This document shows, piece by piece, positions 1,245 through 2,288 of a stretch of DNA of 11,574 nucleotides. Numbering within the stretch: position 1 is the first letter of the stretch; each line of letters opens with the position of its first letter. The DNA is from Escherichia coli (GTDB lineage Bacteria > Pseudomonadota > Gammaproteobacteria > Enterobacterales > Enterobacteriaceae): NCBI RefSeq assembly GCF_003334315.1, contig NZ_QOWR01000085.1. One strand, given 5' to 3'. The position numbers and the translations under genes are program-made. Under the pieces are notes generated by a model, which worked only from the letters and a program-made list of their open reading frames with translations, searched no databases and was not told where the DNA came from.

Positions 1245-1324
1245 TTTCTTACGTATAAACTGCTTCAATTTTGCTATGCTTCGCAAAGCTGTATCGCGAG
1301 GCGGATTGCAGACATGGACATCGT

Positions 1325-1351
1325 AAAAAAACCGCTTAATGCGGTTTTTTT
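1325..1351 (+). terminator. Rho-independent terminator (tR'-like, possibly bidirectional)
   Basis: AAAAAAACCGC-TTAAT-GCGGTTTTTTT: GC-rich stem flanked by an A-run and a T-run, about 80 nt downstream of the Q stop. Confidence 0.6.
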
Positions 1352-1672
1352 ACGTCAGGAAAGCAGGGGAGAATGCTGCTAGTTGGGCAACTGGTCTTTC
1401 TGCTCCAAATTATAACAGAGACCAGTTATAGTTTCGGTGCTGTGTTTTTTTTACAATATTGTGATAACACATTGCTGGCGGGAGTTTTGATATTTCTTGG
1501 CAGGGGCTGATGATGCGTTATCCTGATGTCGTCAACTCATATAAAATGAGATGAGAGATCATTGCAGGGTGGTTTGTAATTCGCTGTTTAGCGGGACAAT
1601 ATGTTGTCTGATACAAGACACCCGACGCCTCAGATTACTATAATAAAGACGAAGCATCCTTTGTATTGACCA

Positions 1673-1697
1673 ACCGCCTGTTTAGGCGGTTCTTTTT
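1673..1697 (+). terminator. Rho-independent terminator-like hairpin
   Basis: ACCGCCT-GTTT-AGGCGGT followed by TCTTTTT; located in the ORF-poor AT-rich spacer. Confidence 0.45.
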
Positions 1698-2229
1698 GGG
1701 CTGGTTTATTGTATGCCAAATGATTATTAAAAAGGTTGTGTTAATAACAAAATCCGAAATAATATGCCTGCATATTTTTATCTTGCTTATATTCTGCATA
1801 TTGTGCATAGCAGGCTCATCCCTGCAATCAAAACTGTATGATGAGTATTTTTTGTTTTCCTTTTTTCCAGTCATCTGATGATGACCTGCTTCTTTTTAAT
1901 CCGGATCGACATCAGTTTTTTAAGATAATTCCTGCGAGTTATATGCATAAATACCACAAACTCCGCATTTTATGTGGTTGGGAGTTGCCGGGCGCGCAGT
2001 GAGTTTGCTAAGAAAACTCCTGCATGGTGAATCCCCCTGTGCGGTGGGGTGATACCATTAACCTTTTCTGTCGCCGACAGGTATCACGAACATTTTGTTC
2101 ACCGGGAGGCACCCGGCACCATGCACTTCAATAGATTCTCTCCACATTATGGATATTCTTTCAGAATATCCCACGCAGACTTTGTGTAAATGTTAACAAA
2201 TGTGCGTTTTATTTGATCTGATTCGCTGT

Positions 2230-2259
2230 TTGAGCGTCCAAAACAACGGTATATATAAT
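2230..2259 (+). promoter_or_regulatory. Candidate sigma70 promoter for the TolA-III-like lipoprotein genes
   Basis: TTGAGC (2230-2235), 18 nt spacer, TATAAT (2254-2259), about 30 nt upstream of the ATG at 2289. Motif match only. Confidence 0.35.
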
Positions 2260-2288
2260 CCTTTACTATATGACATATGTGAGGAAAA

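Follow-up and report, generated by a model that had tools for sequence, protein, structure and literature searches.

The window analysed here, an 11,574-nt stretch of Escherichia coli DNA (contig NZ_QOWR01000085.1 of assembly GCF_003334315.1), represents a reduced, defective Rac-type lambdoid prophage, the gene order of this remnant being hokD, three nin-region genes, morons, lysis genes and trkG. Genes for a NinB-like protein (41–415) and a DUF1364/HNH protein (415–705) are followed by a Q-like late antiterminator gene (702–1244, plus strand), coding for a 180-aa protein of the DUF1133 family. Its product matches PHROG 753 ('anti-termination protein Q-like', E = 2e-79) and Pfam DUF1133 (E = 3e-107), and weakly also Phage_antitermQ (E = 1.4e-4). 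By these profile matches it is of the DUF1133/PHROG 753 type and not a Q of the lambda, 21 or 82 type; antitermination by DUF1133 proteins is putative, and in a prophage remnant the gene may never be expressed. The spacer at 1245–2288 separates Q from two lipoprotein genes, beyond which holin, lysozyme and Rz genes (3515–4688) and then trkG and further Rac-like genes are encoded. The lipoprotein, holin and lysozyme reading frames are intact. In RefSeq genomes, hokD and host genes border the same locus, whose spacer is devoid of annotated features. A sok antitoxin RNA (116 bits; 3779–3953 of locus L001, upstream of the region equivalent to the window) adjoins hokD where the prophage remnant begins on its left side.

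The original prediction described the spacer as an AT-rich, ORF-poor kilobase after Q with two intrinsic terminators, a 9-bp inverted repeat and a T8 run. This description held: the G+C content is 0.404 as compared to 0.489 upstream and 0.458 in the whole window, and each of the elements is present where it had been placed (coordinates rechecked). The longest ORFs of the spacer comprise 78 aa (minus strand) and 70 aa (TTG start). Searching the six longest against PHROGs gave no convincing match, and tblastn of the longest ones against phages retrieved nothing. Window and relatives differ across 1725–1850 by several 1-nt, frame-breaking indels, which mark this stretch as non-coding; together with the lack of ORF family or phage matches they indicate that the spacer is truly non-coding. 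Neither tRNA/tmRNA genes nor remnants of such were found in the window. The terminator scan of the spacer yielded four candidates versus 2.1 ± 1.7 expected, which by itself is no excess; support for the spacer terminators therefore comes from the conservation of their positions in relatives, not from the scanner count. Among 5,426 complete E. coli genomes, 446 contain at least 80 % of the spacer, nearly always at ≥99 % identity. Such near-identity among the ~446 carriers is due to their recent common origin and carries no information on selection. The spacer or the moron genes are broken up by IS1, IS5 and IS3 insertions in other strains.

A kilobase without coding had been regarded as unusual for this gene-dense region, a view not shared by the related lambdoid prophages, which possess 1.4–2 kb of non-coding DNA after Q (mEp460, ~1.4 kb; M19, ~1.6 kb; strain 317, ~1.9 kb with four tandem STnc100 copies). 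tRNA genes and as many as four STnc100 copies occupy these intervals, and the spacer itself is a mosaic of recognisable non-coding modules recurring in related prophages. The suggestion of a decayed moron failed with respect to protein-coding DNA, as the PHROGs and tblastn searches of the spacer ORFs disclosed no remnant. Derivation of the spacer from a deleted protein-coding moron is most improbable: even though the position is a known moron insertion site, and the cargo of relatives at this place includes an AraC regulator, an ORF6N protein and a methyltransferase, no translated similarity was found in the frames tested, and all parts except 1352–1401 align to non-coding DNA of relatives.

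The module directly downstream of Q co-varies with the Q type. According to megablast, the first 59–62 bp after the Q stop are common to many prophages with the same DUF1133 protein; similarity then ends. A candidate PR'-like late promoter (1241–1269, plus strand) overlaps the Q stop codon and is composed of the −35 hexamer TTGATT (1241–1246), an upstream TG (1261–1262) and, at 17-nt spacing, the −10 hexamer TTCAAT (1264–1269), the latter with T instead of A at its second base. With 8 of 12 consensus matches it stayed under the scanner threshold and was not reported. Its assignment as late promoter is suggested by an alignment of seven loci, in which ATAAACTGCTTCAAT is invariant and TTCAAT is preceded at a distance of 17 nt by TTGATT or TTGCAT; seven of seven relatives have a TTGnnT hexamer at this distance before TGCTTCAAT. 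This hexamer is also kept in two relatives with differing surroundings and in one where the module does not adjoin Q, an ORF6N gene being inserted between Q and the leader module at such a split locus. The subsequent leader start (1274–1301, plus strand) is nearly invariant in the seven DUF1133-Q prophages aligned. It comprises a −10-like TATGCT (1274–1279; TA(T/C)GCT in the alignment), and a hairpin GCTTCGC...GCGAGGC (1277–1301; invariantly GCTTCGC-N11-GCGAGGC) belonging to the minimum-free-energy fold. By analogy to lambda PR', TATGCT is suggestive of a possible sigma-dependent pause element.

The leader ends in an intrinsic terminator of the bidirectional type (1325–1351, plus strand; AAAAAAACCGCTTAATGCGGTTTTTTT), consisting of an A7 run, a stem and a T7 run. 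Its fold (−19.7 kcal/mol, z = −6.8) was not reached in stability by any of 200 shuffles; the consensus scanner missed it because the stem absorbed the A and T runs. It lies within the ~100–200 nt from the proposed transcription start that are expected of a PR'-qut-tR' type module. All seven aligned loci possess an intrinsic terminator 25–35 nt past the leader hairpin, differing in sequence by lineage; such conservation of position but not of sequence is the look expected of a functional tR'. In line with the comparison with lambda drawn in the original prediction, the most plausible role of the first terminator is that of a tR'-like end to a short leader formed from a late promoter. The segment 1241–1351 may serve as a defined template for asking whether DUF1133 proteins are true Q-type antiterminators. 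In E. coli O145 RM8995-C1 (locus L014), two promoter-hairpin-terminator leader modules (604–780 and 1471–1650) are arranged in series after one DUF1133 Q gene, with an ORF6N gene between them; the first of these modules differs in sequence and has better hexamers (TTGACT-17-CTATAT, by eye).

BLAST homology to relatives ends at ~1303–1306 and restarts at ~1402–1408. Past the first terminator, the 50-nt junction at 1352–1401 is unique to the lineage of the window and stands where relatives have two to four tRNA genes, such clusters being present at this position in L003, L009, L010 and L015 (strains, in no particular order, 683R6, M19, ETEC1731 and KY178, with M19 as L010). The proposed comparison with related prophages, meant to reveal what was inserted or lost, thus names a tRNA block as the missing part, and as the decayed part an RNA element (see below). 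The junction also bears on the inverted repeat, whose arms AACTGGTCT (1389–1397) and AGACCAGTT (1419–1427) with their 21-nt spacer were found as predicted. It is neither significant nor conserved: ~16 % of first-order Markov-chain (dinucleotide-frequency) randomisations of the spacer produce a perfect 9-bp inverted repeat whose loop is ≤40 nt, and only the right arm is conserved in relatives, while the left arm lies in the junction. Accordingly, 1389–1427 was rejected as a functional hairpin or operator.

The right arm belongs to a conserved 'post-tRNA' block (1402–1535, plus strand), which shares 70–79 % homology with L003, L006, L009, L010 and L011 and further contains the T8 run (1445–1452) and a 55-nt conserved box (1481–1535). 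Inside this box begins a possible micro-ORF (1510–1554; MMRYPDVVNSYKMR, M(M)[RH][YH]P[DYG]VV...), which represents a possible lead from codon-position variation seen by eye. One may ask whether the spacer hides small protein genes such as this one or a 36-aa ORF at 2024–2134. The micro-ORF is preceded at a distance of 6–7 nt by an AGGGG motif, and, among six relatives, variation in its first seven codons falls mostly on third positions (by eye). However, its length and C-terminus differ in every relative (8–22 aa or read-through), the ORF at 2024–2134, located inside the STnc100 element described below, is not kept in other copies (stops after 5–11 codons, or no ATG), and no spacer ORF has homologues. 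We therefore consider hidden small protein genes very unlikely and read these positions as parts of non-coding modules.

Downstream of the conserved block, a decayed copy of a divergent STnc100-like element extends from 1536 to 1697 (plus strand). In relatives, an STnc100-like core is formed by the 110 nt following the block. With a core-only covariance model derived from nine canonical STnc100 copies, these syntenic elements scored 43.7 (L009), 32.0 (L003), 26.8 (L015) and 21.5 bits (L010); two of them received 27.3 and 22.9 bits from the Rfam STnc100 model. The copy at 1536–1697 in the window is detected neither by Rfam nor by the core model; its kinship to STnc100 is deduced from synteny and from collinear BLAST matches to elements that are detected (L010, L003, L009). 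A 17-nt deletion has removed the 5' half of its P4 hairpin (CGGGAGGCACCCG hairpin), while the 3' single-stranded region and the terminator at 1672–1697 (8-bp stem with 5 G-C pairs, then CTTTTT) are retained. The second of the two predicted terminators therefore marks the end of a decayed RNA gene. The same deletion creates AAGACA 18 nt upstream of a conserved TATAAT (1615–1644, plus strand), and one may speculate that this promoter-like pair drives a 47-nt RNA.

The following unit (1698–1897, plus strand), defined by a four-way alignment and folds, is conserved and non-coding. This A+T-rich stretch, present in four lineages, contains a hairpin at 1810–1825, the invariant TTGTATGATGA, and a terminator-like hairpin at 1867–1888, which is followed by CTTCTTTTT (T run). 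The latter is weak in the window (−7.8 kcal/mol); its stem is kept via different sequence in ETEC1731 and forms a perfect 9-bp stem in strain 317, i.e., the aligned sequences covary. Divergent versions of the unit occur in only ~26 genomes outside the lineage of the window. The alignment provides modest support for the unit as a candidate third small RNA.

The original prediction that the spacer harbours one or more small RNAs was right, and the proposed covariance-model search located a clear member of the STnc100 family at 1992–2178 (plus strand), in addition to the decayed relative with its terminator at 1536–1697. The match to Rfam RF02076 spans model positions 1–206 and scores 86.6 bits (gathering score 47; E = 7e-18); the nine-copy core model yields 93.1 bits. 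In the core (2022–2124, plus strand), every pair of P1 (2022–2029/2117–2124), P2 (2033–2037/2045–2049) and P4 (2102–2106/2112–2116) forms. Across the nine-copy alignment, P1 shows compensatory changes at four of its eight pairs, and P1 and P3 covary. As a late-region element of a lambdoid prophage, it lies downstream of Q, and family members are likewise found between Q and the morons or lysis genes in mEp460, H-19B, E2348/69, strain 317 and M19. Typical members (H-19B, copies 3 and 4 of strain 317, PasD1/2) end in a G+C-rich hairpin with a U tract. No such terminator is present in the window copy, where the aligned position reads GGAUAUUCUUUCAGAAUAUCC and then CACGCAG, and an A+U-rich hairpin without subsequent U tract (2151–2171, plus strand) stands in its place; the copies of mEp460, L007 and M19 likewise carry an A+U-rich hairpin and lack the terminator. 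A good promoter is also absent, the candidate read by eye being TTGCCG-18-TAAGAA (7 of 12). Expression of this copy and any regulation of targets by it are putative. Since it lacks a terminator and runs into the promoter/ribosome-binding-site region of the lipoprotein gene, the intact copy is more likely part of a longer RNA (late transcript or leader) and then processed, than a separate terminated sRNA.

Several further observations were made on this family and its surroundings. Strain 317 (L006, NZ_CP023357.1) carries four tandem STnc100 copies at 3077–4192 (76.6–131.9 bits), bordered by a tRNA pair on one side and a SASA-family esterase gene on the other, with G+C-rich terminators in only the last two copies. 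Two further copies are located after the TolA-like gene of M19 (L010). On the minus strand of the window, a promoter-like TTTACA-16-TATTCT (2190–2163, 9 of 12) points antisense into the STnc100 core and recalls the convergent sRNA dyads of EHEC prophages; no minus-strand terminator follows it, and Rfam RF02703/RF02702 (AsxR/AgvB) had no match across 1100–3600 up to E = 5. Other Rfam families gave only sub-threshold matches driven by terminators (isrK, 21.6 bits; AgrB; OrzO-P) and were dismissed.

Beyond the core, the window is 100 % identical to mEp460 from 2100 onwards, while the sequence left of it resembles strain 317 and M19; many megablast matches begin exactly at 2098. As the matches of the left and right flanks differ, mosaic junctions fall inside the conserved STnc100 core, and the invariant halves of the core may be linkers at which morons are exchanged by recombination. 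A far-reaching extension would regard the core as a modular boundary element of lambdoid late operons, its ~25-nt invariant halves serving as moron crossover points, and a terminator-less, moron-fused copy acting in cis on the Q-antiterminated or moron transcript (processing, stability, insulation). We consider this extension speculative and decidedly unlikely; if true, the window copy would be a natural test case, with flanks from two lineages and the junction in the core.

The segment 2098–2288 is 100 % identical in many prophages with the same lipoprotein gene. It contains a candidate moron promoter (TTGAGC-18-TATAAT, 2230–2259, plus strand) with 10 of 12 consensus matches and the ribosome-binding site GAGGA (2281–2285, plus strand) of the first of two tandem genes for lipoproteins with a TolA C-terminal domain (2289–2717 and 2868–3263, plus strand; assigned via PHROG 5772, NCBIfam TolA C-terminal and RefSeq annotation in relatives). 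The two products are paralogous members of PHROG 5772 (function unknown), each with a lipobox-like N-terminus, and could plausibly serve to exclude Tol-dependent phages or colicins. This arrangement raises the question of whether the STnc100 core (2022–2124) is a structured, cis-acting 5' leader on the mRNA of the TolA-like lipoprotein (stability, processing, translation control) rather than a trans-acting Hfq sRNA. Such a role agrees with the fact that the terminator-less copies of the window, mEp460, L007 and M19 are joined to the same 190-nt lipoprotein upstream region, and with the location of the element directly upstream of esterase genes in other prophages. However, the good promoter-like site at 2230–2259 follows the element and may allow transcription of the lipoprotein gene to bypass the core, and the characterised relatives PasD and EcOnc27 bind Hfq, end in terminators and have targets in trans (PMC8550237, PMC7873438). 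A purely cis-acting leader thus appears rather unlikely; the terminator-less copy fused to a lipoprotein gene could help to decide between cis and trans action of the core.

Taken together, in the late operon of this defective Rac-type lambdoid prophage the spacer is probably (probability about 0.7) the non-coding portion next to the promoter, with leader termination, Q-dependent read-through and small-RNA cassettes. Family membership, intact helices, module conservation and mosaicism are shown by the sequence comparisons; the mechanism is proposed on the grounds of conservation and analogy, from which promoter use, Q dependence, expression and target regulation are likewise inferred. Transcription would start at the weak candidate sigma-70 promoter overlapping the Q stop codon, proceed through the conserved hairpin leader and halt at 1325–1351, yielding a leader RNA of ~75 nt, unless a Q-like protein renders RNA polymerase terminator-resistant. 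The modified polymerase would then read through the terminators at 1672–1697, 1867–1897 (weak) and 3389–3406 into the holin and lysozyme genes. Between promoter and lysis genes would lie small-RNA cassettes typical of the moron site, i.e., the decayed STnc100-like element keeping only its 3' region and terminator, the rarer conserved unit with its own terminator-like hairpin, and the intact STnc100 core, the latter presumably made within a longer RNA continuing into the promoter/ribosome-binding-site region of the lipoprotein gene.

Alternatively, the spacer may be inert fossil DNA of the once-active late region of a dead prophage, from which no RNAs are made or used today. This is a possibility of lesser but real weight, in view of the heavy reduction of the prophage, the visible decay of one STnc100-like copy, the intact copy without consensus promoter or terminator, the interruption of the same region by IS1, IS5 and IS3 in other strains, and an identity among carriers that is explained by descent alone. 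Yet every STnc100 core helix still pairs, the tR'-like and the second terminator as well as the downstream lipoprotein, holin and lysozyme ORFs are intact, and family members are expressed in uninduced EHEC lysogens (PMC5331693, PMC4104026). Overall, we favour the late-operon reading, in which the spacer retains a leader module and RNA cassettes.

Phage lambda possesses a PR'-qut-6S RNA-tR' module with a leader of 194 nt. As in this module and in StxS of Stx phages (PMC7873438), the candidate promoter of the window is located directly after Q, a short leader would run to a strong intrinsic terminator, and the late genes beyond would need read-through. Differences from lambda are that Q belongs to the DUF1133 family, that the predicted leader is only ~75 nt long, that the promoter hexamers are weak, and that Q binding and pausing are putative here.

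For at least eight Sakai prophages, Tree et al. in 2014 (PMC4104026) and a later review (PMC7873438) described sRNAs that bind Hfq and are encoded at the moron site, between PR' and the lysis genes. Of the 11 STnc100 copies in the strain EDL933, one was confirmed by Northern blot (PMC5331693), and EcOnc27/sRNA103 overlaps a predicted STnc100 downstream of stx2B (PMC12711010). PasD1/2 depend on Hfq (PMC8550237), and PasD was recently linked to STnc100 (doi 10.64898/2026.05.13.724894). Expression, including that in uninduced EHEC lysogens (PMC5331693, PMC4104026), and Hfq association are known only for other STnc100 copies than the present one (PMC5331693, PMC4104026, PMC8550237). With STnc100 RNAs including EcOnc27/sRNA103 of EHEC, the window copy shares the full-length match, the P1-P2-(P3)-P4 core with the conserved GGUGAAUCCCCC and CCGGGAGGCACCCGG, and the place after Q/PR' and before morons and lysis genes; unlike typical members it has the A+U-rich hairpin without U tract, a shortened central P3 and no convincing promoter of its own. 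PasD1/PasD2 of EPEC E2348/69 (Hfq-dependent, ~172 nt; 39.7 bits with the core model, 38–41 bits with Rfam STnc100) have a related core and the same late-region context; the PasD seed region (CCUUGUGAGUU) and terminator are missing from the window copy, and PasD itself has lost the separate P4 hairpin. With only the core in common, identity of the window copy with PasD was rejected. The sRNA 'dyads' at the PR' moron site of Sakai prophages (AsxR/EcOnc27, AgvB/EcOnc06) occupy the same niche and include an STnc100-type partner, whereas the window lacks an AsxR- or AgvB-like convergent partner.

The result matters little beyond annotation: in ~450 complete E. coli genomes, exactly this spacer is unannotated, even though it holds a prophage RNA recognisable by Rfam and a likely late promoter/terminator module belonging to Q-like proteins of the DUF1133 class, which have been little studied. 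Since sRNAs at the moron site are published and the non-coding intervals of relatives are equally long or longer, the spacer is ordinary, a normal example of an already described arrangement.
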